Counted from the stretch's first letter, positions 21,582-33,604 are shown. The stretch is DNA of 33,604 nt from Chloroflexota bacterium (GCA_016875645.1 VGPE01000003.1:1-33604), one strand, 5' to 3'. Program-made: numbers and translations. Notes: a model not told the origin generated them from the letters alone.

Positions 21582-22856
21582 GTGCGCCCGGTCACGGTCC
21601 TGATCCTCCACCCGCCATCCCCCGCAGACGGTGGCGAGCCCGTCCGCTGGCTTGCGACCGCCCGCGAGGTCATCGCCGAGGGGCATCGCGCCGCCTTCGT
21701 GGCGGCCGGGGCGGAACACGTGCGCGTCGTGAGCCAGGATGGCGGGCCGCTCACGTTCGGCCAGCGACTGCGCTCCCTGGCGCGCGAGGTGGTCGAGGCG
21801 ACCCTGCCCGGCCGTCGCCATGGCCTCGTCGTCATCGGGTCGGGGGCGATGCCGCTGGCGCGCCGCTTGGACCTCGAGGAGTTCGTCAGGGTGGCCCGCA
21901 GTGTCGCGCGACGCCCGGTTGCGCTCGCCAACAGCTACTACTCGGCCGACGCCGTTGCGATCCCGGACGCGGCCATCCTCCTGGCCCTGCCGGACCTGCC
22001 GTCTGATAACGCGCTCCCGCGCTGGCTCGCGGAGCGGGCCGGCGTGCCCGTGCGCGATCGCCGGAACGTCTGGCGCCTCAGTGTCGACATCGACTCGCCA
22101 CTCGATGTGGTCCTGCTCGCCGGTGATCCCGGTTGTCCGCCGGCACTCCGCGCGCTCGCCCGCGAAATCGCGGCCGGTGCCCCCGAGTTCACCGACGCCC
22201 TGCGTGGCGTCGTGGCGGTGATGGCGGACCGGCGCTCTGAGCTCTTCGTGGCCGGCCGCTCGTCGTCACGGACCCTGCGCTGGCTCGAGACCCGTGTGGC
22301 CTGCCGCGTCCGCGCCCTCATCGAGGAGCGGGGCATGCGCTCTGGCACCGCCCTTGCGCTGGGGGACCTCGACGAGGAACGCGACCAGCCACCGGCCGTC
22401 CCGGCGGCCTCGGTCGAGCTCGCCCCGCCGCGATCGCTGCTGGCGCTGGCCCTTGACGAATCCGGCCCGCGACAATTGGCACCGCTGATCGGTCAGCTCT
22501 GCGACGCGGCGGTGCTCGACAGCCGGGTCCTGCTGGCGCACCGGCTCGGGAGCGACGAGCGGCGCTGGCCACCGCTGGCACAGCGGCTCGCGTCCGATCT
22601 CCTCCGCCCTGACGAGGTGCGCGATCCGTGGCTGCGCGAGCTGACGCGGCGGGCATTGGCCGCGCGCCGGCCGATCCTGCTGGGTGGGCACACCCTGGTG
22701 GGACCCGGGCTGCCCCTGATCCCCGGTGCCGTTCGCTGGTTGGATCAGCCGGAGGAGCCGGAGGAGCCGGAGAAGCCGGCCGCGCCGGAGCCGGAGGAGC
22801 CGGCCGCGCCGTCGGATGCGCGGCTGCGGCCGAGCCTCTGGGATGAGGCGACATGA
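21582..22856 (+). CDS. Hypothetical protein with a possible CofC/MobA-like nucleotidyltransferase N-domain
   Basis: LVVIGSGAMPL and LSVDIDSPLDV resemble the CofC/MobA DxP and DxDTxxD motifs. Family assignment is weak. Confidence 0.6.
   Translation: MRPVTVLILHPPSPADGGEPVRWLATAREVIAEGHRAAFVAAGAEHVRVVSQDGGPLTFGQRLRSLAREVVEATLPGRRHGLVVIGSGAMPLARRLDLEEFVRVARSVARRPVALANSYYSADAVAIPDAAILLALPDLPSDNALPRWLAERAGVPVRDRRNVWRLSVDIDSPLDVVLLAGDPGCPPALRALAREIAAGAPEFTDALRGVVAVMADRRSELFVAGRSSSRTLRWLETRVACRVRALIEERGMRSGTALALGDLDEERDQPPAVPAASVELAPPRSLLALALDESGPRQLAPLIGQLCDAAVLDSRVLLAHRLGSDERRWPPLAQRLASDLLRPDEVRDPWLRELTRRALAARRPILLGGHTLVGPGLPLIPGAVRWLDQPEEPEEPEKPAAPEPEEPAAPSDARLRPSLWDEAT
22749..22811 (+). repeat. 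In-frame 9-bp-unit tandem repeat encoding PEEPEEPEKPAAPEPEEPAAP
   Basis: CCGGAGGAG / CCGGAGAAG / CCGGCCGCG units near the 3' end of the CDS. Confidence 0.7.
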
Positions 22857-24010
22857 CGGCGCCCCTGTCCGATGCCGAGCTGGCCGAGATCATCGGGCGG
22901 GAGATCGACGGTGCGGGCGGGGCGATCCCGTTCGCCCGCTTCATGGAGCTTGCGCTCTATGACCCGGATCACGGGTACTACCTCCAGCCACGACCTGCCG
23001 CCGGCCGGCACGGCGCAGACTTCCTGACGGCGCCCGAGCTGCACCCGATCTTCGGCCAGGTGGTTGCCCGCCAGATCGCGGAGATGCGATCCCGCCTGGG
23101 CGAACCGCCCGACTTCACCATCCGGGAGTACGCGGCCGGCAGTGGCGCGCTGGCCGAGGCGATCCTGGGCGAGATGGGCGCGGACGTCCGCTACGAAGCG
23201 ATCGAGCTCAACCGGCATCGGCGTGCGGAGCTGGCAGCGCGCCTGCCCCTGGCGCGGGTCACGGCCGGCGCGTCCGACACCCCGATCACCGGGGTCGTCC
23301 TCGCCAACGAGCTGCTGGACGCTCTGCCCGTCCACCGCGTGGTGATGCGCGGCGGGCGCCTGCGGGAGGTCTACGTTCGACGAGGCGAAACCGCCCGGTC
23401 CTTCACCGACCAGGAGGGCGAGCCCTCCACGCCGGCCCTCGCGGCACGCCTGGCGGCCGAGGGCGTGGACCTTGCCGACGGTCAGCGGAGTGAAGTCAAC
23501 CTTGGCATCGAGGCGTGGCTGGCCGAAGCAGCCACGGGGCTGCACCGCGGCTACATGCTGATCGTCGACTACGGGTACCGGGCCGCGGACCTCTATTCCG
23601 AGCGCAGGGGGGCCGGCACGTTGCTGAGCTACTCGGGCCACCGCGTGGTCGACGATCCGTACGCCGACGTCGGACGGCAGGACCTCACCGCCCACGTGGA
23701 CTTCACGGCCGTGGAACGTGCCGCACGTCGAGCCGGCCTGACGCCCCTGGGCCTCACGAGCCAGGCGGAGTTCCTCGTCGGGGCCGGCGCGGAAACCGTC
23801 GTGGAGCGCGTCCGGACTGATCCCGCGACCGACCTGGCGGGTTGGGTTGCGCTCCGCTCCGCGCTCGGCCGGCTGCTGGATCCCCGTGCCATGGGCGCCT
23901 TCAAGGTGTGCGTGCTTGGCCGAGGGATCCCGATCGAGCCACCGCTGCAGGGTCTCGCGTACCGCATCGCGGGGCCACCGGCGGCGGCACCGGGCGGGGA
24001 CGCACAGTAG
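22853..24010 (+). CDS. SAM-dependent methyltransferase, MidA/NDUFAF7 family
   Basis: IPFARFMELALYDPDHGYY, DFLTAPELHPIFG, EYAAGSGALA, ANELLDALPVH, VDYG, GRQDLTAHVDF, MGAFKV. Confidence 0.9.
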   Translation: MTAPLSDAELAEIIGREIDGAGGAIPFARFMELALYDPDHGYYLQPRPAAGRHGADFLTAPELHPIFGQVVARQIAEMRSRLGEPPDFTIREYAAGSGALAEAILGEMGADVRYEAIELNRHRRAELAARLPLARVTAGASDTPITGVVLANELLDALPVHRVVMRGGRLREVYVRRGETARSFTDQEGEPSTPALAARLAAEGVDLADGQRSEVNLGIEAWLAEAATGLHRGYMLIVDYGYRAADLYSERRGAGTLLSYSGHRVVDDPYADVGRQDLTAHVDFTAVERAARRAGLTPLGLTSQAEFLVGAGAETVVERVRTDPATDLAGWVALRSALGRLLDPRAMGAFKVCVLGRGIPIEPPLQGLAYRIAGPPAAAPGGDAQ

Positions 24011-24131
24011 AATGCCCGTGGCGCCTCGGGTCCGATCGCCGCAGATTCACCTGCCCTTCACCGGGCGACCGCCGGACCGTTCAGCGGCGCTGCGTTCCGC
24101 CCGGGCAGGACGCATGAAACATGAGGTTGAC

Positions 24132-24488
24132 GTGACCGGCGTCTGGTACGTGCTGGGCTTCGCGTTCGCGGGGGTCTCGTTCGTGTTCCTGACGATCGGC
24201 GCGTCCTGGCTGCTCACCCACCGCAACAAGGGCGACCATCACAAGGGACTGCCCTACGAGAGCGGCATCGATACGTACGGCGACCCACACGCGCGGTTCG
24301 GCCTCTCGTTCTACATCTACGCTCTGCTCTTTGTCGCCTTCGACATTGAGGTCATCTTCATCTACCTCTGGGCGATCATCTTCAAGGACCTGTTGCTGGG
24401 CGGCTTCGTGAGCATGCTCATCTTCGTGGCCATCCTGATGCTGGGGCTCGCCTACGCCTGGCGGAAGGGAGTGCTCACGTGGCGCTGA
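24132..24488 (+). CDS. nuoA: NADH-quinone oxidoreductase subunit A
   Basis: [35 protein letters not shown] start after GAGGT. A TAGAAT -10 candidate lies at 24008-24013. Confidence 0.93.
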
Positions 24489-25240
24489 CTCCTGATGCGC
24501 CCGGTGCCCCCGGTGGCGCCGCCCCCGGCGACGTGACCGCAGGCGCCTCCGGGCAGGCCGGAACCATGCCGGTCGCCATGCCGGCGGATTCGTCGCGGGC
24601 GCTCACCGAGGCGATCGTCGTCCCCAATTCGCTGTGGACCTCGGCCAACCCGATTGCCTACAACGGCGGACGGCCCGCAGAGATCACGCACCTGCGCGAG
24701 TGGGCGCAGACCGAGGATGCTCGACGCGACAACGCCCGCTGGGGGGCGCTCGAGGTGATCCCGACCAAGGCGGACTACGTGCTGGACCTCATCCGCGCGA
24801 ACAGCCTCTGGCCGCTCCTGTCGGGACTGGCGTGCTGTGCCATCGAGATGATGTCGGCGGCCACCAGCAAGAACGATATGGACCGCTGGGGGATGTTCCC
24901 GTTCCGCGCCAGTCCCCGCCAGGCCGACGTGCTGATCGTGGCGGGAACCCTGACCACGAAGATGTCCGGCCCGCTGCTCCGGCTCTGGGAGCAGATGCCG
25001 GAGCCCAAGTGGTGCGTGGCGATGGGTGACTGCACCGTGTCGGGCGGCCGCTACAAGCGCAGCTACTCCACGGTCGAGGGAATCGACCGGATCATGCCGG
25101 TCGACGTGTACGTGCCCGGCTGTCCCCCGCGACCCGAGGGGCTGATCTTCGGGATGATGAAGCTGCAGCAGCTCGTCAAAGACCGCCGCGGCCACTGGCC
25201 CGAGCGGATGGTTGGGCCCAACGTGCCCGACGGCGTCTGA
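24479..25240 (+). CDS. nuoB: NADH-quinone oxidoreductase subunit B (start may be downstream)
   Basis: [38 protein letters not shown]; cluster N2 ligands intact. Confidence 0.95.
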
Positions 25241-25251
25241 GCGGGACGATC

Positions 25252-25803
25252 ATGGATCCAGCGTTCAAGCGGCGGCTCGAGACCCGCTTCCGCGGCGTTC
25301 TCCTGGGCCCGGTCCACCAGCGCCACGACGAGACCGAGATCCGGGTGGGCCCGGGCGATGTCTCCGCGGTCATGCGCGCCCTCCACGACGAGCCGACCTT
25401 TCGCTTCGAGTTCCTCTCGGACGTGTGTGGCGTGGACACCGGCGTCGTGATGCAGGTGGTCTACCACCTCTGGAGCGAGACGACCGCGGACTGGCTGCGG
25501 GTCATCGCGGACGGCCTGTCGCGCGACGATCCGCGGGTCCCATCACTCACCCCGTTGTGGCCGGGTGCGGAGTGGATGGAACGCGAGGCCTACGACATGT
25601 TCGGCATCACGTTCGAGGGGAACCGCGACCTGCGGCGCATCTACATGCCGCCTGACTACATGGCGTTTCCGCTCCGCAAGGACTTCTATCTGCCCGACGA
25701 TGCGGCCCGTTCGCCCGGGGCCGGCGTTCGGCATGTCGAGCAGTCGCACGCCCCGGTGAATGCCGACCCGTCGGTCACGGTCCGGACGGCCCGCGGAGCC
25801 TGA
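25252..25803 (+). CDS. nuoC: NADH-quinone oxidoreductase subunit C
   Basis: LSDVCGVD, VVYHLWS, WMEREAYDMFGITFEG, FPLRKDF. Confidence 0.93.
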   Translation: MDPAFKRRLETRFRGVLLGPVHQRHDETEIRVGPGDVSAVMRALHDEPTFRFEFLSDVCGVDTGVVMQVVYHLWSETTADWLRVIADGLSRDDPRVPSLTPLWPGAEWMEREAYDMFGITFEGNRDLRRIYMPPDYMAFPLRKDFYLPDDAARSPGAGVRHVEQSHAPVNADPSVTVRTARGA

Positions 25804-25804
25804 C

Positions 25805-27025
25805 ATGGTGACCCACAGCCGGCAACCTTCGGCCGACGACCCCCGCGTCCTGCTGGACCAGGAAATCGGCGTCTTCGAGCCGGTCCCGCCGTATCCCCCG
25901 CGCACGGAGCGCGAAGCCGAGTTCTACACCCTCGGCGACGGCGAGATGTTCGTGAACATGGGCCCCCAGCACCCGTCCACCCACGGTGTGTTGCGGATCG
26001 TGCTCAAGCTCAACGGCGAGCAGGTGGTCGACCTGGATCCGGTGCTCGGCTACCTCCACCGCGGCGTCGAGAAGATCTGTGAGAACAGCGACTACCACCA
26101 CATCGTCAACCAGCTGGACCCGCTCGAGTACATCTCGTCGCTGTTCATGGAGTGGCCCTACGTCCAGGCCGCGGAGAAGCTCCTGGACCTGGAGGTCCCC
26201 CGCCGCGCCGAATACATCCGTGTCCTGTCGGGCGAGCTCAACCGCATCGCCAGTCACGCGCTGTTCATGGGCTGGTTCGCACTGGACCTCGGCGGGCTGA
26301 CGCCGATCCTGTGGAGCTTCATCGAGCGCGACGAGATCGTGGAGATGCTCGGCGCGCTGACCGGCGCCCGGATGCTCTTCAACTACTTCCGGATCGGCGG
26401 CGTGAACGGCGACCTGAACCACGAGTTCATGAGCCGCCTCGGGTCCTGGATGAGCCGCGCCGCGACGCAGATCGAAGCCAACACAAAGCTTCTCAACGAG
26501 AACGAGATCTTCGTCCGGCGGGCCCGCGGCCTCGGCCGGATGGACCGCGAGATGGCCCTCCGGATGTGCGTCACCGGGCCGAACCTGCGCGCGACCGGCG
26601 TCCCGTTCGACGTCCGGCGTGCCCACCCCTATTCCATCTACCCGGAGCTGGACTTCGACGTCCCGACCCGCACGGAAGGCGACTCGCTGGCGCGGTACCT
26701 GCTCCGGGTCGACGAGGTGAAGCAGAGCCTGCGCATCATCGACCAGTGCCTGCACCAGATGCCCGACGGGCCGATCATGGCCCGCATCCCACGCCTGATC
26801 CGGCCGCGCCCGGGGCGTGCCTACGGGGCGGTCGAAAGCCCGCGCGGCCAGTACACCATGTACATGATCAGCGACGGAACCGACCAGCCCTTCCGGCTGC
26901 GGATCCACGATCCATCGTTTGTGCATCTCGGGTCGGTCGGTCGCCTGGTGCCGGGCAACCTGGTCGCCGACACCATGGCCATCATGGCGAGCCTCGACCC
27001 GGTCATGGGCGGCGTCGACAAGTGA
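25805..27025 (+). CDS. nuoD: NADH-quinone oxidoreductase subunit D
   Basis: NMGPQHPSTHGVLR, GYLHRGVEK, ELNRIASH, FRIGGV, VESPRG, SLDPVMGGVDK. No NiFe CxxC motifs, so not a hydrogenase large subunit. Confidence 0.95.
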   Translation: MVTHSRQPSADDPRVLLDQEIGVFEPVPPYPPRTEREAEFYTLGDGEMFVNMGPQHPSTHGVLRIVLKLNGEQVVDLDPVLGYLHRGVEKICENSDYHHIVNQLDPLEYISSLFMEWPYVQAAEKLLDLEVPRRAEYIRVLSGELNRIASHALFMGWFALDLGGLTPILWSFIERDEIVEMLGALTGARMLFNYFRIGGVNGDLNHEFMSRLGSWMSRAATQIEANTKLLNENEIFVRRARGLGRMDREMALRMCVTGPNLRATGVPFDVRRAHPYSIYPELDFDVPTRTEGDSLARYLLRVDEVKQSLRIIDQCLHQMPDGPIMARIPRLIRPRPGRAYGAVESPRGQYTMYMISDGTDQPFRLRIHDPSFVHLGSVGRLVPGNLVADTMAIMASLDPVMGGVDK

Positions 27026-27152: not shown

Positions 27153-28493
27153 ATGACCACCGTTTCGCGGGCGTGGGGCCGGCTGACGCTGCCCGGGAAG
27201 ATCTTCTTCACGGTCGTGCCGCTGCTGCTCGTGCTCGGGCTGGGCGGGCTGATCGCGATCATGCTGCTGGGGCCGCTCGTGCTCCAGATCCTCGGCGACA
27301 ACCTGCCGCTCGTGCGGTTCGTCATCGCTGCAACCGCGGTGCTGCTCGCCGCGATCCCGATCGCCTTCCTGAACATCTTCATGGAAATGAAGGTCATTGC
27401 CTTCATGAACCTGCGGATCGGCCCCGATCGGGTTGGTCCCTGGGGCACCCTCCTGTCGGTCGTCCACGGGCTCAAGGTGCTCGGCAAGGAAGACTTCACC
27501 CCGACCGGCGCCGACCGGACCATCTTCACCTTGGCGCCGGTGGTGGTCTTCCTGGGCACCGTGATGTCGTTCCTGGTCATCCCGTTTGCACCCGGGCTGT
27601 TTGGCCAGGACTTCAACATCGGGCTGCTGTACTTCTTCGCGGTCGGCGGCCTGACGGTGGTCGGGCTGATGATGGCCGGCTGGGCCAGCTTCAACAAGTA
27701 CTCGCTCCTGGGCGGGCTCCGCGCCGCGGCGCAGATCGTCTCGTACGAGATCCCGTTGACGCTTTCGGTCGTCGGCATCCTCATGCTGGCCGGCACGATG
27801 AGCCTCAACCAGATCGTGCTCAACCAGTCCGGCTCGTTCCTGGACTGGTACGTGTTCCAGCAGCCGCTGGGCGCATTGATCTTCCTGATCGCCATCACCG
27901 CCGAGGCCAATCGCGCCCCGTTCGACCTGACCGAAGCCGATTCGGAGATCGTGGCGGGCTTTGCAACCGAGTACTCGGGCATGCGCTTCGGCTTCCTGTT
28001 CTTCGCCGAGTACGTGAACATGTTCATCGTCTCGGCCCTCACCGTGACGCTGTTCTTCGGCGGCTGGAACGCGCCGTTCGACTGGCCGTTCCCGATCAGC
28101 GCGAACCTCGATCCGGCGAGCCTCGGAATCGGGCTGCTGATCCTGGTGGCGGTGGTCCCCCTGATCGGAACCCTCGCGCTGGCAGCGCCGTTCTGGCTCA
28201 TGCGCAGCTCCATGCCCACCTGGCAGGCACTCGTGATCGGGTTCGTGCTGTTCAACGTGCTGGCGGTCGCGGCGGTCCTCGGCTGGGCCTTCGTCAGCTG
28301 GGAGTGGGTCGTCGGATTGCTCTGGTCTATGATCAAGGCCTACGGGTTCGTGTTCTTCTTCGTCTGGCTGCGCGGTACGCTGCCCCGCGTCCGGATCGAT
28401 CAGCTGATGAATTTCGCGTGGAAGTGGCTGCTGCCCGCGGCGCTTCTGAACCTGTTCGTGACAGCGCTCGCGATCATCGTGCTGGGCCGCTGA
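27153..28493 (+). CDS. nuoH: NADH-quinone oxidoreductase subunit H (extended, 446 aa)
   Basis: RIGPDRVGPWG, NKYSLLGGLRAAAQIVSYEIP, AEANRAPFDLTEADSEIVAGFATEYSG, LPRVRIDQLM..WKWLLP. Confidence 0.94.
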   Translation: MTTVSRAWGRLTLPGKIFFTVVPLLLVLGLGGLIAIMLLGPLVLQILGDNLPLVRFVIAATAVLLAAIPIAFLNIFMEMKVIAFMNLRIGPDRVGPWGTLLSVVHGLKVLGKEDFTPTGADRTIFTLAPVVVFLGTVMSFLVIPFAPGLFGQDFNIGLLYFFAVGGLTVVGLMMAGWASFNKYSLLGGLRAAAQIVSYEIPLTLSVVGILMLAGTMSLNQIVLNQSGSFLDWYVFQQPLGALIFLIAITAEANRAPFDLTEADSEIVAGFATEYSGMRFGFLFFAEYVNMFIVSALTVTLFFGGWNAPFDWPFPISANLDPASLGIGLLILVAVVPLIGTLALAAPFWLMRSSMPTWQALVIGFVLFNVLAVAAVLGWAFVSWEWVVGLLWSMIKAYGFVFFFVWLRGTLPRVRIDQLMNFAWKWLLPAALLNLFVTALAIIVLGR

Positions 28494-28539
28494 TGACCCG
28501 CACGGCCAGCATCGCAACGAGCACTCGGAGCGTTCCTCG

Positions 28540-29373
28540 ATGAGCTTGCTGTCGGGCCTGGTGCCCGGTCTGGGCCTGGCGAAGGGCATGGCGCTGGGCC
28601 TCGTGCGCTTCTTCCAGCCCAAGGCCACGATCATGTACCCGGAGGCGGCGCCGGACGTCAGCCCGCGCTTCCGCGGCCGGCTGCAACTGCTGTACGACGA
28701 GTGGGGCACGCTCAAGTGCGAGACGTGCTTCCAGTGCGCCCAGGCCTGCCCGATCGAGTGCATCGACATGGGTGGCATCGACACCAAGGGCCGCTTCCAC
28801 GTCCACTGGGGCCCGCCCGAGACCTACGGCGAGCGACGCGAGGAATCTGCGCTGCGGCGCTCCGGCCGCCCGGTGCCCGACCGCGAGTACGAGCACTTCG
28901 AGCCGATTGATATGAGGGCGGTGGACGAGGCCCTCGCGCGCTACGACTACGACCCAAAGGAGATGCTGCGCATCCTGGAGGCCACGGACGCGGCGTACGG
29001 CTACCTGCCGGTCGCAGCGCTCAAGCGGATCAGCGACGCGACCGGCGCGTGGTACGCGATGCTCTACGGCACGGCGTCCTATTACCGCCATCTGCGCTTC
29101 GATCCGCCGGTTCGAGTCGTCGCGGTCTGTCGCTGCACGAGCTGCCTGATGGCCGGCGGCGGGCGTGTGCTCGAGGTGCTCGAAGCCTCGCTCGGAACCG
29201 AGATCGGGTCAGTGCCGACACATGGTGGTATCCGCATCGAACAGCTGGCGAGCCACATCCCCGGCGCGACCGCACCGCTCGTCACGTTCGACGGGACCAC
29301 CCAGGTGGGGCTCACCGTGGAGTCCGCTGCAGCCTGGGCGCGGACACTCTCGGGCATCGGCGCCAGGGTTTGA
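28540..29373 (+). CDS. Fusion: NuoI N-terminal half (one CxxCxxCxxxCP) + NuoE-like domain
   Basis: TIMYPE..SPRFRGRL..KCETCFQCAQACPIECI is the NuoI N-half. Then YGYLPVAALKRIS..GTASYY..VCRCTSC..LGTEIG..APLVTFDG is the NuoE fold. Confidence 0.85.
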   Translation: MSLLSGLVPGLGLAKGMALGLVRFFQPKATIMYPEAAPDVSPRFRGRLQLLYDEWGTLKCETCFQCAQACPIECIDMGGIDTKGRFHVHWGPPETYGERREESALRRSGRPVPDREYEHFEPIDMRAVDEALARYDYDPKEMLRILEATDAAYGYLPVAALKRISDATGAWYAMLYGTASYYRHLRFDPPVRVVAVCRCTSCLMAGGGRVLEVLEASLGTEIGSVPTHGGIRIEQLASHIPGATAPLVTFDGTTQVGLTVESAAAWARTLSGIGARV

Positions 29374-29377
29374 CCGG

Positions 29378-30727
29378 ATGACCCGATTGCTCGCCACTCC
29401 CGCCGAGTGGCCGCGGATCCTGCTCGCCCGCGCCGAACGGGACATCTCCGTCCCTGACCTGGCACCAGAGACGGGCCCCGACCTCGAGCGGGCCTTCACC
29501 CTCGGCGCGTTCGAGGGATTGCGACTCGCCATTGACGAGCTCGGGCCTGAGGGCGTCATCGGCGAGGTCGAGCGGGCGAACCTTCGGGGCCGCGGCGGCG
29601 CGGGGCACCCGGCGGCGGCCAAGTGGCGAGCGGCACGGGCCCAGGAGAGCAGCCGCCGGTTCGTCGTCGCGAACGGCTACGGCGCCGATCCCGCGTCGTT
29701 CACCGACATGATCCTGATGGAACGCGACCCCTGGGCCATTCTCGAAGGCATCGCGATCGTCGCCTACACGATCCGGGCGACCGAGGCGGTGATCGCGATC
29801 CGGGCCGAGTACACCGAGGCCATCCGCCGGCTCGACGAGGCCATCCTCGCCGCCGAGGAGGCCGGCTTCCTGGGCACCGACATCCTGGAGTCGGGCGTCA
29901 ACCTCACGGTCACGGTCCGGGTGGTGCAGGGTGCATACATGCTGGGCGAGGAGACCGTCCTGCTCAAGGCCCTCGAGGGCAAGCGCGGCCAGCCCGAGCA
30001 GCGGCCGCCCTACCCCGCGGCGCGCGGGCTCTTCGGCCAGCCGACGGTGGTCCACAACGTCGCGACTCTCGCCGCCGTGCCGTGGATCATCGCCAACGGC
30101 GCCGCAGCGTTCGCGGCCATCGGCTCGCCCGACGCACCGGGTACTGCTTTGGTCCAGGTCCGCGGCCTTGAAACGGAGGGCATCGCGGAGGTCCCGACGG
30201 GCACCCCGCTGCGCGAGATCGTTGGCCTAACGGCCGCGTTCGGCGGCGGCCGGAAGATCAAGGCGGTCCTCGTCGGCGGGCCGTCCGGCGGCCTGCTACC
30301 GGCCGACCTGCTCGACACCCCATATGCGTTCGAGGCGCTGCGGTCCGTCGGCGGCCATATCGGCTCGGGCTCCGTGGTCGTGGCCGACGAGCGCGCCTGT
30401 GTCGTGGACCTCGCCCGCCTCCTCACCCGGTTCTGCGCGGATGAAGCGTGCGGCAAGACAATCCCGTGCCGGATCGGCCTCAGACGCCTGGCGGAGATCG
30501 CCGAGCGCGCCACGAACGGCCACCCGCGGCCCACCGACGCCCAACTCATCAGCGACCTCTGCCACGATGTCTCCGAATCCGGGCTGTGCGACCACGAGCG
30601 CCTTGCGACCCTTCCGCTGACGACCGGGATGCGATACTTCCGCTCCGAACTCGACGATCACCTGCTCCGCGGGACGTGCCCTGCCGGCGTCTGCCGGCCG
30701 ATCGCCGTGAGCGGAGCGGCGCACTGA
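29378..30727 (+). CDS. nuoF: NuoF/HydB-like flavoprotein subunit (degenerate motifs)
   Basis: LRGRGGAGHP..KW, GAYMLGEETVLLKALEGKRGQP, GGPSGG, EACGKTIPCRIG, and C-terminal H..CPAGVC. Confidence 0.85.
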   Translation: MTRLLATPAEWPRILLARAERDISVPDLAPETGPDLERAFTLGAFEGLRLAIDELGPEGVIGEVERANLRGRGGAGHPAAAKWRAARAQESSRRFVVANGYGADPASFTDMILMERDPWAILEGIAIVAYTIRATEAVIAIRAEYTEAIRRLDEAILAAEEAGFLGTDILESGVNLTVTVRVVQGAYMLGEETVLLKALEGKRGQPEQRPPYPAARGLFGQPTVVHNVATLAAVPWIIANGAAAFAAIGSPDAPGTALVQVRGLETEGIAEVPTGTPLREIVGLTAAFGGGRKIKAVLVGGPSGGLLPADLLDTPYAFEALRSVGGHIGSGSVVVADERACVVDLARLLTRFCADEACGKTIPCRIGLRRLAEIAERATNGHPRPTDAQLISDLCHDVSESGLCDHERLATLPLTTGMRYFRSELDDHLLRGTCPAGVCRPIAVSGAAH

Positions 30728-30773
30728 TGACACTCTCGTCCCTCGCCCGCATCACCCACGCCCGCGAGATCCG

Positions 30774-33371
30774 ATGACCGACCTGATCGTCCGCCCGGAC
30801 GCCGACGCCACCGCCCTCGCCGAGACGCTGCTCACGATCCAGGCGCCGCAGCGCCCGGTGGCAACGCCGCGCATCCGGATCGAAGTGGACGGTCGCGTCG
30901 TGGAGGGATTCGAGGGCCAGACGATCCTCGAGGTCTGCCGCGACAACGGCATCGAGATCCCGACGCTCTGCTACGAGCCCAAGCTGCCGGGCTTCGGCGC
31001 CTGCCGGATGTGCGTCGTCGAGGTCGAGGGCGAGGACCACCCGCCGATTTCCTGTTCACGCTCGGCTGAGGCGGGCATGAAGGTCCAGACCCAGACCGAG
31101 GAGATGCGCCGGCTGCGCAGAACCAACCTCGAGCTGATCTTCAGCGACCACAACGCGTACTGCCTGCCGCCGTGCCAGAACAAGTGCCCGAGTCACATCG
31201 ACATCCCGGGCTTCCTCAAGATGAACGCCGAGACGAACTGGCGGGAATCCACGCGGATCTTCAAGCGCACGATCCCCTTCCCGTCGGTCCTCGGCCGGGT
31301 CTGCCCTGCCCCGTGCGAGGAGCACTGCCGGCGCGACGAGGTGGACGAGGCGATCGCGATCCGCGACTCGCACCGCTACGCCGGCGACCAGGTGCTCAAG
31401 CAGATGAACGACCAGGGCATCGACCCGCCCGTCCCGTTCGAGCTGCGCGAGAAGAGCGGGCGCCGGGTGGCGGTGATCGGATCCGGGCCCGCGGGCGCTG
31501 CCGCGGCGTACTACCTGCTCATCGTCGGCCACGACGTGACGATCTTCGAGCGTGACGCGGCTCCGGGCGGCATGCTCCGCTACGGCATCCCCCAGTACCG
31601 CCTGCCCAAGGTCGAGGTGCTCGAGGGCGAGTACGAGAGCATCACCCGCCTCGGCGGCCGCTTCGTGTGCAACCAGGGCCTGGGTCGCGACTTCACGCTC
31701 GACGACCTCCAGAACCAGGGCTACGACGCGGTCCTCGTCGCGATCGGGTGCTACGACACCAATAAGCTCGGGATCCCGGGTGAGGACGCCGACGGCGTCA
31801 TCGACGGACTCGAGTACCTGCGGACCGCGACGCTCGGCCTGGAGTACCCGGGCCACAAGGGCAGCCGGGTGGTCGTGATCGGCGGCGGCTTCACCTCGAT
31901 GGACTGCACGCGCACGTCCGTGCGCCAGGGTGCCGCCGACGTGACCCTCGTTTACCGGCGCGACATGAAGGACATGCCGGCGTCGAACGAGGTCCACGAG
32001 GCGATCGAGGAAGGCGCGACGGCGATCTTCCAGGCCGGCCCGGTCCGGGTCGTCACCGACGCGAATAACAAGGTGACCGGCGTTGAGTTCATCCGGATGC
32101 GCCTGGGCGAGCCCGACGCATCCGGCCGGCGACGCCCGGAACCGGCGGCCGGCACCGAGTTCACGCTGCCCTGCGACCGGGTGCTGCTGGCGATCGGCCA
32201 GGGCCCCGACCTGTCGTGGATCGGGCCCGGCAGCGAGGGCCCCAAGCCGAATCGCCAGCGCCGTCTGGCGGCTGACGCAGTCACCTTCGCCACCGGGCGG
32301 CCCGGCGTGTTCGGGACCGGCGACGTCCGCATCGGGTCCGCAACGGTCGTGGAAGCCGTCGCCGAGGGTCGGCGGGCCGCCTACGCGGCGGACGCCTACG
32401 TGCGCGGGATGGACCTCGATGCGATCCGGACGCGCCAGACCCTGGCCGAGCCGAAGCCGGAGTTCCTCTCGATCGTGCCGTTCACGAGCGAGGCCAAGGA
32501 GCCGCGCTACCGCATGACGGCCATGGAGCCCGAGGCGCGCAACACCAACTACATCGAGTACGAGATCCCGTATACCCGCGAGGCGGCCGTCGCCGAGTCC
32601 ACGCGCTGTCTCCAGTGCACGTGCGAGGCGATCGGGTTCTGCGACCTGCGGCGCCTGGGGATCGAGTACGGCACGACACTGCGCACCCTGGAGCCGCAGC
32701 ATCACAGTGGGGCGGGCCATCGCTCGGTGACCGAGAACCGGTTCACAGGCACCAATCACGACTACCTTCGCGACGACAGCCACGCCTTCATCCTGCGCGA
32801 GCCCTCGCGCTGCATCGACTGCGGACGCTGCGCCAACGTCTGTGCGGAGGTCGTTGGGGCCGCCTGCTACGACTTCATGCGGATCGGCTTCGACACGCTC
32901 GTGACGACGCCGCTCGACATGAGCCTCAACGACACCCCGTGCGTGTCCTGCGGCCGCTGTGCGGAGACGTGCCCGACCGGCGCCCTCATGCCCAAGCCCC
33001 GCGTCCTGCAGAAGTACGAGGTGGACGAGAGCCGCTGCATCCTGTGCGGCATCTGCGTGGATGCCTGCCCGTACGACGCGCTGCGCGACAGCACCGAGCT
33101 CGAGCTTGCGCACGACAGCCGTGTGCAGCCGATGATCGACCTGCTGGCGTATTCAGCCACGGCACGCGACACCGAGGTCAGCTACATCCGACGCGAGCGC
33201 GACTGGGCCGAACGGGCCATGGCCGAGGGCCGCCTGCTCGATCCCGGCCGCCTCCTGCCCGTCCTGCCCGCAACGATCGGTGCGCGCGTTCCCGGCGCCG
33301 GTGGCGAGGGCAACGGTCACGGCCATGGCAACGGCCACGGCTCGGCGTCACTGCCTGCCCATCACAAGTAA
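30774..33371 (+). CDS. Multidomain Fe-S flavoprotein: NuoG-like 2Fe-2S N-domain + GltD/NfnB-like FAD/NAD(P) domain + 2x[4Fe-4S] + NuoI C-terminal half
   Basis: IPTLCY..GACRMCVVEV; PCQNKCPSHIDIPG; GRVCPAPCEEHCRR; VAVIGSGPAG; VIGGGFTSMD; VYRR; RCIDCGRCANVC; CVSCGRCAETCPTGAL; YEVDESRCILCGICVDACPYDAL..ELA. Confidence 0.88.
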   Translation: MTDLIVRPDADATALAETLLTIQAPQRPVATPRIRIEVDGRVVEGFEGQTILEVCRDNGIEIPTLCYEPKLPGFGACRMCVVEVEGEDHPPISCSRSAEAGMKVQTQTEEMRRLRRTNLELIFSDHNAYCLPPCQNKCPSHIDIPGFLKMNAETNWRESTRIFKRTIPFPSVLGRVCPAPCEEHCRRDEVDEAIAIRDSHRYAGDQVLKQMNDQGIDPPVPFELREKSGRRVAVIGSGPAGAAAAYYLLIVGHDVTIFERDAAPGGMLRYGIPQYRLPKVEVLEGEYESITRLGGRFVCNQGLGRDFTLDDLQNQGYDAVLVAIGCYDTNKLGIPGEDADGVIDGLEYLRTATLGLEYPGHKGSRVVVIGGGFTSMDCTRTSVRQGAADVTLVYRRDMKDMPASNEVHEAIEEGATAIFQAGPVRVVTDANNKVTGVEFIRMRLGEPDASGRRRPEPAAGTEFTLPCDRVLLAIGQGPDLSWIGPGSEGPKPNRQRRLAADAVTFATGRPGVFGTGDVRIGSATVVEAVAEGRRAAYAADAYVRGMDLDAIRTRQTLAEPKPEFLSIVPFTSEAKEPRYRMTAMEPEARNTNYIEYEIPYTREAAVAESTRCLQCTCEAIGFCDLRRLGIEYGTTLRTLEPQHHSGAGHRSVTENRFTGTNHDYLRDDSHAFILREPSRCIDCGRCANVCAEVVGAACYDFMRIGFDTLVTTPLDMSLNDTPCVSCGRCAETCPTGALMPKPRVLQKYEVDESRCILCGICVDACPYDALRDSTELELAHDSRVQPMIDLLAYSATARDTEVSYIRRERDWAERAMAEGRLLDPGRLLPVLPATIGARVPGAGGEGNGHGHGNGHGSASLPAHHK

Positions 33372-33449
33372 CGGTCGAAGAGGGACTGGCCCGGGTCGGC
33401 TCGCAGGCCGGTCGCGGGTGCTGCCAGTCAAGGGAGCCAGAGGGAGTTC

Positions 33450-33604
33450 GTGGCGATACCGAACACGGTCCCGTTCATCGGGATCGGCTGGGACGACGTG
33501 CTGTTTCTGATCTTCGCGGCGGCGATGATCGGGACGGCCCTGCTCGTCGTCACGATGAAGGACATCATCCGCTGCGGCCTGGCCATGATCGCCTCCTTCG
33601 CCGC
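33450..33604 (+). CDS. nuoJ: NADH-quinone oxidoreductase subunit J (5' partial, runs off the window)
   Basis: GTG after GGGAG; ..VLFLIFAAAMIGTALLVVTMKDIIRCGLAMIASFA fits the NuoJ TM1-TM2 pattern, at the expected operon position. Confidence 0.75.
   Translation, partial: MAIPNTVPFIGIGWDDVLFLIFAAAMIGTALLVVTMKDIIRCGLAMIASFA

Follow-up and report, generated by a model that had tools for sequence, protein, structure and literature searches.

In the accepted picture of complex I, separate input subunits dock onto a core of 11 subunits, and the origin of these inputs is a long-standing question. Alternative inputs that engage the NuoI homologue of this core are FpoF/FpoI of the F420H2 dehydrogenase and the ferredoxin-accepting NdhS/NdhI side of cyanobacterial NDH-1; both systems have an input subunit of its own next to an intact FpoI or NdhI, unlike the split NuoI described below. 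For mbx-like operons, an excerpt of one account states that a GltD-related flavoprotein substitutes for NuoI (Degli Esposti, 2015; PMC4758237). The locus considered here lies in the 33,604-nucleotide (nt) sequence VGPE01000003.1:1-33604 of a Chloroflexota bacterium (GCA_016875645.1), hereafter the window, which is a whole contig of a metagenome-assembled genome (MAG) of 2.85 Mb, 91% complete and in 371 contigs. It encodes a nuo operon of the 11-subunit type (A B C D H ... J), in which a trimmed nfnC-nfnB-nfnA-like operon breaks up nuoI within the loop that joins the two ferredoxin motifs; the very gene for the connecting subunit here contains an input operon. As in Mbx-like complexes, which are compared by their description only, a GltD-type NAD(P)H module is found at the position of NuoI, but both NuoI motifs are kept and split instead of being substituted. 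The source is a lake bacterium of the Limnocylindria (Chloroflexota), near homologues carrying record titles with Candidatus Limnocylindrales, Limnocylindria or Chloroflexota, and this nuo operon is its only complex I.

On the plus strand, which carries all features of the window given below, an NDUFAF7-like methyltransferase gene is followed by nuoA, nuoB, nuoC, nuoD, nuoH, three genes here termed P1, P2 and P3, and the start of nuoJ. P1 (28540-29373, 277 amino acids, TGA stop) combines the N-terminal half of NuoI with a NuoE/NfnC-like domain, P2 (29378-30727, 449 amino acids, TGA stop; PF01512 and PF10589) is a NuoF/NfnB-like flavin mononucleotide (FMN) subunit, and P3 (30774-33371, 865 amino acids) is an NfnA/StnA-like subunit with the C-terminal half of NuoI at its end. 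The genes occupy three different reading frames with spacers of 4 nt (P1-P2) and 46 nt (P2-P3), and the separate frames and the TGA stops of P1 and P2 indicate that three polypeptides are made. No gene lies between nuoH and the N-half or between the C-half and nuoJ, the start of which (33450-33604) is cut by the contig end; the translation of this frame resembles the NuoJ of a relative (G025) that likewise directly follows P3, and in relatives with longer contigs (locus L018 of G025) the operon goes on with J K L M N. The break in NuoI thus falls into the loop that joins its two ferredoxin motifs, and the halves bracket a three-gene input module. A preliminary description of the window, made from the sequence alone, had already proposed this order, H-I(N)...I(C)-J around three genes, with a single NuoI ferredoxin motif (P1 C60 to P71) ahead of a NuoE-like domain in the gene after nuoH and with the missing half at the end of the 865-amino-acid protein directly before nuoJ, and in all these respects it proved accurate.

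The N-half (28573-28800, P1 residues 12-87) includes the TIMYPE and PRFRG segments and was delimited by NF004536 (P1 15-86 on positions 15-87 of 180), by TIGR01971 (P1 16-79 on positions 1-63 of 121), by our own NuoI hidden Markov model (HMM) and by E. coli NuoI (7awt_I). Its ferredoxin motif 1, C60-x2-C63-x2-C66-x3-C70-P71 (28717-28752), is the only such motif in P1. The C-half (32997-33128, P3 residues 742-785), previously placed from Y748 (nt 33015) onwards, begins at nt 32997; P3 743-785 aligns to positions 71-113 of the 121 of TIGR01971, and ferredoxin motif 2, hereafter P3 motif C, reads C755-x2-C758-x2-C761-x3-C765-P766 (33036-33071) and is invariant in 48 sequences. On our HMM of 166 positions, built from 30 intact Chloroflexota NuoI proteins including one row (L021) from the unpublished genome G262, P1 12-81 covers positions 9-78 with 53.7 bits and P3 742-785 covers positions 89-132 with 31.7 bits, and E. 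coli NuoI is tiled by the two pieces over residues 19-88 (P1) and 92-127 (P3). The complementary half-hits anticipated in the preliminary description are therefore given by TIGR01971 as well as by our own model.

The likeness to NuoI extends beyond the cysteine motifs, as the N-terminal stretch ahead of motif 1 and the FELA-type stretch that follows motif 2 are both present and the best single-domain PDB matches of both pieces are NuoI/TYKY. Generic ferredoxins do not account for the C-terminal motif: with P3 738-805 searched alone, the best single stretches are the C-halves of NuoI/TYKY/NDUFS8 at 42-48 bits, against at most about 23 bits per single domain for polyferredoxins, whose higher totals are sums over many repeats. 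All eight NuoI cysteines and both prolines are invariant (61 P1 and 48 P3 sequences aligned), and the CxxCxxCxxxCP pattern occurs exactly once in 120 of 120 P1 homologues and three times in 120 of 120 P3 homologues, among those listed. In NfnA the HydA/NuoG-type domain has a pair of motifs, with which the two remaining P3 motifs, A (C680-C690) and B (C723-P734), can be aligned; motif C therefore has no partner inside P3, and the single motif of P1 likewise has none inside P1.

An intact nuoI was not found in the 91%-complete MAG by a six-frame scan, in which none of six NuoI matches with E ≤ 0.01 exceeded the cut-off; the two best were the P1 and P3 halves and the next best scored 29 bits. The split, together with the lack of an intact gene, is shared by related genomes. 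P1 is present in 41 of 41 genomes of the order, a single-contig genome (G002) among them, and a class survey with the NuoI model gave half-hits only in all 33 sampled genomes (best E 3e-16 to 2e-12), none of them above the cut-off. Full-length NuoI above the cut-off occurs in 206 of 301 Chloroflexota genomes, a count that includes the unpublished genomes G262, G078, G306, G209 and G182, on which alone no claim rests. In the most distant family, with a P1 identity of about 37%, five of five genomes have both halves on one strand at a distance of 4.3-4.4 kb, as in the window. Two P1 peptide patterns retrieved at least 599 stretches from species-representative genomes, and 576 of 599 encode a P1 relative; the best 80 of those stretches bear titles of Chloroflexota-type MAGs, with one exception titled only 'uncultured bacterium'.

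The bracketed genes had been described as an E/F/G-type module, which holds for a three-gene input module as such, but not for a canonical NuoEFG, the closest relatives being NfnC/NfnB/NfnA and StnABC. The NuoE/NfnC-like domain of P1 (28915-29334) matches PF01257 over residues 129-265 with 61.5 bits (cut-off 24.8), and its closest relative is NfnC (9bov_C), to which it can be aligned. The [2Fe-2S] ligand pattern Cx4C ... Cx3C is incomplete, S238 and G242 standing in the place of the second pair, which leaves two of the four canonical cysteines. Within 29128-29334, C197, C199 and C202 are invariant and H239 is nearly so; C199 and H239 are extras, and the four residues could be an unusual ligand set, or nothing. 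The thioredoxin-like domain is wholly missing in all four inspected relatives (G011-G014; loci L050-L052 and L055), in which the helical N-terminal part is kept, and 12 of the 41 order-level P1 rows end at query residue 229 or earlier.

The best matches of P2 are NfnB (9bov_B, 354 bits), StnB (350 bits) and HydB (about 333 bits), with canonical bacterial NuoF at 244-268 bits. Both Pfam families, Complex1_51K and NADH_4Fe-4S, are recognized, while the NuoF model TIGR01959 gives 342.8 bits, below its cut-off of 558.65, and P2 covers residues 116-526 of the 584 of NfnB, without the N- and C-terminal iron-sulphur (Fe-S) domains of the latter. The N3/B1 motif reads FCADEACGKTIPC (30434-30469, residues about 353-364), with a new cysteine five residues upstream. 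The window (locus L007) lacks the middle cysteine of this motif, as do 17 of 19 loci listed from relatives; the upstream cysteine (FCADEAC) is present in 14 of those 17 loci and absent from G017, G049 and G062. Two genera (G005, G007) keep CGKC and are without the upstream cysteine, and G017 and the distant family f3 have neither.

P3 is best matched by NfnA of C. saccharolyticus (9bov_A, 528 bits; residues 34-765 on residues 4-699 of 1178), Thermococcus NfnA (9n5u_A) and StnA (8oh5_C) being other top structure matches. The domain set of the BfuABC A subunit is complete, with a [2Fe-2S] N-terminal domain of N1b/A1 type (30870-31097; PF13510 at residues 33-108), a GltD/NfnL-like domain with Rossmann folds for flavin adenine dinucleotide (FAD) and NAD(P)H and with Fe-S ligands (31161-32408; PF14691, PF07992 and PRK12814 at 551 bits), and a ferredoxin-like HydA/NuoG-type 2x[4Fe-4S] domain holding motifs A and B (32790-32987; PF22117 at residues 673-738 with 22.7 bits, below the 27-bit cut-off). 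In the GltD-like domain GxGxxG, GGGxxxxD, the YRR motif, which presumably plays a role in 2'-phosphate binding, and the Fe-S cysteines are invariant in 48 sequences. The NuoG model TIGR01973 matches only the N-terminal 100 residues or so (97.2 bits, cut-off 470). The Fdh/NuoG-like C-terminal domain with cluster A5 is absent, the alignment to 9bov_A stopping at residue 699 of the latter, and where NfnA has its Fdh-like domain, some 8 residues beyond motif B, P3 enters the C-half of NuoI.

By homology, the insert is a trimmed NfnABC/Stn-type operon (Bfu family) of nfnC-nfnB-nfnA-like composition with a GltD-like FAD/NADPH domain. NfnABC and StnABC (9BOV, 9N5U, 8OH5) provide the best relatives of all three parts and share the domain order of P3; unlike these enzymes, the module lacks the Fdh-like domain, A5, the N- and C-terminal Fe-S/Zn domains of NfnB (B3, B4) and two of the four C1 cysteines, and, whereas NfnABC and StnABC are soluble and have no membrane partner, it carries a fused NuoI half at either end and is encoded inside a nuo operon. 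With the canonical 14-subunit complex I of T. thermophilus and E. coli the locus shares the core, the N2 motif, the features of both NuoI halves, and an FMN subunit and a 2Fe-2S/4Fe-4S chain leading to NuoI. It differs in that NuoI consists of two polypeptides, that the E/F/G-like genes lie inside nuoI and not between nuoD and nuoH, that the NuoG C-terminal domain is missing, a GltD-like FAD domain added and the N1a ligand set incomplete, and that P2 and P3 remain under the NuoF and NuoG cut-offs.

A related arrangement occurs in two Dehalococcoidia-type genomes, noticed among Chloroflexota with low NuoI scores, in which nuoA-B-C-D-H and J-K-L-M-N enclose a gene for a protein of 627/628 amino acids (L057:7930-9813, -, in G048; L058:8202-10088, -, in G162). 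This protein is a single polypeptide, with a NuoI N-half at about residues 10-75, a GltD-like part at about 80-545 and a NuoI C-half at about 548-601; the GltD part has 39% identity to P3 133-615. The Dehalococcoidia form has in common with the window the same loop, the same kind of flavoprotein and the frame nuoABCDH-x-JKLMN; it differs as one polypeptide without NuoE- and NuoF-like parts and without the 2Fe-2S and HydA-type domains, and would constitute an NADPH-only input. Both ferredoxin motifs are present in 110 of 116 homologues of 600-660 amino acids (from the 120 best matches listed), and members of the family, annotated only as 'FAD-dependent oxidoreductase', are frequent in MAGs of Dehalococcoidia. 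An AF2 model of the L057 protein (pLDDT 87.6, pTM 0.84) contains beta-alpha-beta elements at 45-72 and 549-578, and the best fold matches retrieved with Foldseek, NfnA and StnA, extend over the GltD-like body only. That the same NuoI loop carries an input module in two ways within one phylum supports a functional reading of the insertion and hints at a common origin of the split and the insertion forms.

In a NuoH tree of 34 rows, four split-type and two insertion-type rows group together (97/89 support) apart from 28 intact-NuoI rows, which were those scoring highest for NuoI; this tree has long branches and no fixed root, and it includes one row from the unpublished G262. NuoH of the window additionally has an insertion of about 75 amino acids (28080-28316), which is present in four of four split-type NuoH proteins and in none of the 32 other Chloroflexota NuoH proteins compared; its two hydrophobic stretches are probably two extra membrane helices. 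Searching 121 genomes of the class Dehalococcoidia with the GltD-inserted protein gave mostly GltD paralogues, a match over the full length (1-627) only in G048, and matches over most of the query in five genomes of family f19 (G061, G073, G097, G109, G135). The protein encoded in G073 (L059:6849-8651, minus strand; 600 amino acids) has a GltD-like domain flanked by two ferredoxin motifs and ends in a hydrophobic C-terminus. Its gene lies outside any nuo operon and the protein is without the NuoI N-terminus; its architecture indicates that a GltD domain interrupting a ferredoxin domain is not restricted to NuoI.

In ferredoxins with two [4Fe-4S] clusters, each cluster takes three cysteines of one motif and one of the other, and a lone CxxCxxCxxxCP cannot complete a cluster. 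Motif 1 of P1 and motif C of P3 would form one NuoI-type 2x[4Fe-4S] fold, in which N6a and N6b would each be ligated by three cysteines from one protein and one from the other. Ligation across subunits, with the module clamped onto the complex, had been suggested in the preliminary description. Such ligation is the economical explanation, because both motifs are orphans, eight cysteines are invariant and there is no other nuoI, and the clamp is likely; the pairing itself gains weak support from structure prediction, as detailed below. The two-protein fold would dock on NuoB/C/D as NuoI does; NuoB retains the tandem-cysteine N2 motif. The N-terminal segment of the NuoE-like portion of P1 would hold P2, as NfnC holds NfnB, and P2 would bind the N-terminus of P3; with these contacts and the two NuoI halves, the input module would close into a loop with both its ends fixed in NuoI. 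According to an excerpt of the report on NfnABC, the N-terminal part of NfnC anchors it between NfnA and NfnB (PMC11829005), which fits a tethering role for P1.

A path for the electrons can be proposed by homology with the C. saccharolyticus NfnABC structure. In that enzyme, as the same excerpt has it, electrons of NADPH run FAD-A7-A6-A3-A2-A1 to B1/FMN, and the clusters A2-A4-A5 form a dead-end branch that leads into an Fdh-like domain without pterin, this branch and this domain being called evolutionary remnants (PMC11829005). In the complex proposed here, electrons of NADH would pass from the FMN of P2 through B1/N3 and A1 to A2, those of NADPH from the FAD of P3 through A7, A6 and A3 to A2, and both chains, joined at A2, would continue over A4, part of the dead-end branch in NfnA, to N6a/N6b, N2 and quinone. 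For bifurcation, the excerpt names the flavobicluster [B1-FMN-C1] and, for ferredoxin reduction, B3/B4 of the NfnB C-terminal domain as required (PMC11829005). With an incomplete set of C1 ligands and with B3/B4 lost along with the C-terminal domain of NfnB, no bifurcation is expected, and the enzyme would be a plain proton-pumping NAD(P)H:quinone oxidoreductase. We regard the explanation as a whole, a NuoI split across P1 and P3 with shared N6a/N6b and an Nfn-derived input of NADH and NADPH to quinone, as probable.

A number of points weigh against this explanation. Neither half reaches the curated NuoI cut-off (P1 48.5 and P3 46.3 against 113.05 bits), and the P3 alignment is shallow, with a mean column identity of 82%. 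In P2 the motif CGKTIPC stands against CGKCxxC of NfnB (9bov_B), the middle cysteine being replaced by threonine, which makes the state of this cluster uncertain. The use of NADPH is predicted from the conserved GltD motifs, and electrons could flow in either direction in vivo; the RNA runs X17-X20 contain only about 5% of the sampled words. The pairing of P1 with P3, finally, combines the reasoning given above with a weak model score, to which we return below.

Among the alternatives, the one that survives best retains the split and the pairing as described and regards the GltD-like domain as a structural relic, so that complex I would be fed by NADH only. The C-terminal domain of NuoG is a relic of this kind. 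Relic domains also occur in the Nfn family itself, where the excerpt cited lists the branch A2-A4-A5 and, in NfnA, the Fdh-like domain that lacks a pterin (PMC11829005). A relic would, however, hardly keep the Rossmann motifs for FAD and NAD(P)H and the Fe-S cysteines invariant in 48 sequences, and the Dehalococcoidia relatives keep the GltD domain as their sole input module, which makes little sense unless it is catalytic; we consider a relic unlikely.

Much less probable is that the module still works as a bifurcating or confurcating Nfn/Stn transhydrogenase seated on complex I, for example between NADPH, NAD and quinone or ferredoxin. All three subunits are indeed closest to NfnABC/StnABC, but the parts which bifurcation depends on are affected throughout: two of the four C1 cysteines are missing and the whole thioredoxin-like domain is absent in the four inspected relatives, the NfnB C-terminal domain with B3/B4 is absent, and the B1 motif is altered.

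The pairing of the halves was addressed by predicting a complex of P1 1-125 and P3 655-840, the competing motifs A and B included, with four [4Fe-4S] clusters. The prediction reached an ipSAE of 0.46 (runs 0.43-0.49) against 0.00 for the best of three controls; at least 72% of the contacts were common to the runs and the partner pLDDT was at least 62. The mark applied to such predictions is reached by 58 of 80 solved complexes and by 2 of 110 mismatched pairs, and on that benchmark scores of 0.60 or below belong to only 7 of the 80 solved complexes and to both mismatches. Halves of a known fold may, moreover, score by their likeness to solved NuoI structures. The model thus does not refute the pairing of the halves as first suggested, and lends it weak support. 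With the pairing inferential and its score weak, the orphan motifs might be left unpaired, P1 and P3 then belonging to a soluble enzyme and the membrane complex being without a NuoI-type connector or having another partner. We judge this, too, highly improbable, about as much so as a bifurcating module, since the pieces are NuoI-specific, are found together in each of the 33 genomes sampled from the class and have eight invariant cysteines, since a lone motif cannot complete a cluster, and since no other NuoI would link the module to N2. That the locus is chimeric, a pseudogene in decay or otherwise produced by faulty assembly, as the fragmentation of the MAG into 371 contigs might suggest, has a negligible probability, as a single contig of 7733 bases from run X2, a lake metagenome of another study, spans 28300-33550 with 38 substitutions and no gaps, and as the locus is also represented in a single-contig genome and throughout the class at P1 identities down to about 37%.

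Extended to the class, the preferred explanation, a split NuoI with an Nfn-derived input, would describe a complex I typical of the Limnocylindria, with hundreds of species from lakes, soils and fens: a two-polypeptide NuoI, a domesticated Nfn/Stn-type N-module, a dual NADH/NADPH:quinone pump, and, with the Dehalococcoidia form, input modules exchanged at one NuoI loop, where deletions in the split form may have given rise to the form with one polypeptide. We put this wider reading forward tentatively, its chances being in our view somewhat short of even. In the open full-text literature, supplements (for example figure S2 of PMC4758237 on variant nuo clusters) and subscription journals lying outside this scope, neither a split NuoI nor a GltD domain within NuoI was found to be described. 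The parts belong to known families; new, as far as checked, are the split of NuoI, the clusters that it implies are shared, and the Nfn-derived N-module in the sole complex I of a class. The locus would be a natural case of Fe-S clusters common to two polypeptides in the main electron wire, and of a complex I that probably accepts NADPH, in which a member of a bifurcating family has turned into a plain dehydrogenase. If true, there is a complex I lineage whose input modules swap by insertion into one NuoI loop. The labels that standard pipelines assign here are 'NAD(P)H-dependent oxidoreductase subunit E' and 'FAD-dependent oxidoreductase'; with such generic labels and with the NuoI model under its cut-off for either half, complex I may be counted as incomplete when the metabolism of Chloroflexota abundant in fresh water and soil is reconstructed.

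Two further candidates from relatives were rejected. Apparent fusions of the NuoI N-half with E- and F-like parts (open frames of 681-924 amino acids) are stop-free upstream frames of high-GC DNA, and a further split of P3 in G049 and G062, seen as short frames near the C-half, consists of tblastn frame switches at arbitrary points and is probably not an architecture. The frame switches in P2/P3 of these two genomes (L140 in G049, L141 in G062) are probably indel errors in assemblies of few contigs, real decay being the other option. The read comparison also yielded short 'joints' with sides of 20-23 letters, which were taken as matches from other organisms.

Between the N-half and the NuoE-like domain, P1 has a strongly conserved linker (28801-28914; HWG..E.Y.ERR.ES..RR.GR.V) with invariant columns from H89 to V112 in the P1 alignment, for which no family match was found. 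P3 continues after the C-half with a conserved tail (33129-33368; invariant columns E801 to P832), equally without a family match, and then a His/Gly/Asn-rich end (GNGHGHGNGHG..., 33300-33368) that is present yet variable among homologues.

The remaining genes of the operon were assigned as nuoA (24114-24488; PF00507 at residues 114-212 of the open reading frame 23847-24488, with the start MKHEV set at 24114), nuoB (24479-25240; PF01058), the tandem-cysteine N2 motif of which reads GLACCAIEM, nuoC (25252-25803; PF00329), nuoD (25760-27025; PF00346), whose true start may be 25805, and nuoH (27153-28493; PF00146), with the lineage-specific insertion at residues about 310-388, at which the NuoH alignment is broken for 32 of 32 other sequences and for 0 of 3 split-type relatives. 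Elsewhere in the same MAG, a second NuoF/HydB-like gene (L004, G000:C307:969-2730) has a canonical CGQCxPC motif and a C-terminal ferredoxin-type stretch, and its product may be part of a soluble Bfu/Hox-type enzyme. Directly 5' of nuoA lies the gene for the NDUFAF7/MidA-like S-adenosylmethionine (SAM)-dependent methyltransferase (22853-24010; PF02636 Methyltransf_28, 167.7 bits), and a methyltransferase beside nuoA is found in the same neighbourhood of an actinobacterial 11-subunit operon, according to an excerpt of a preprint (bioRxiv 10.1101/2021.02.01.429150).

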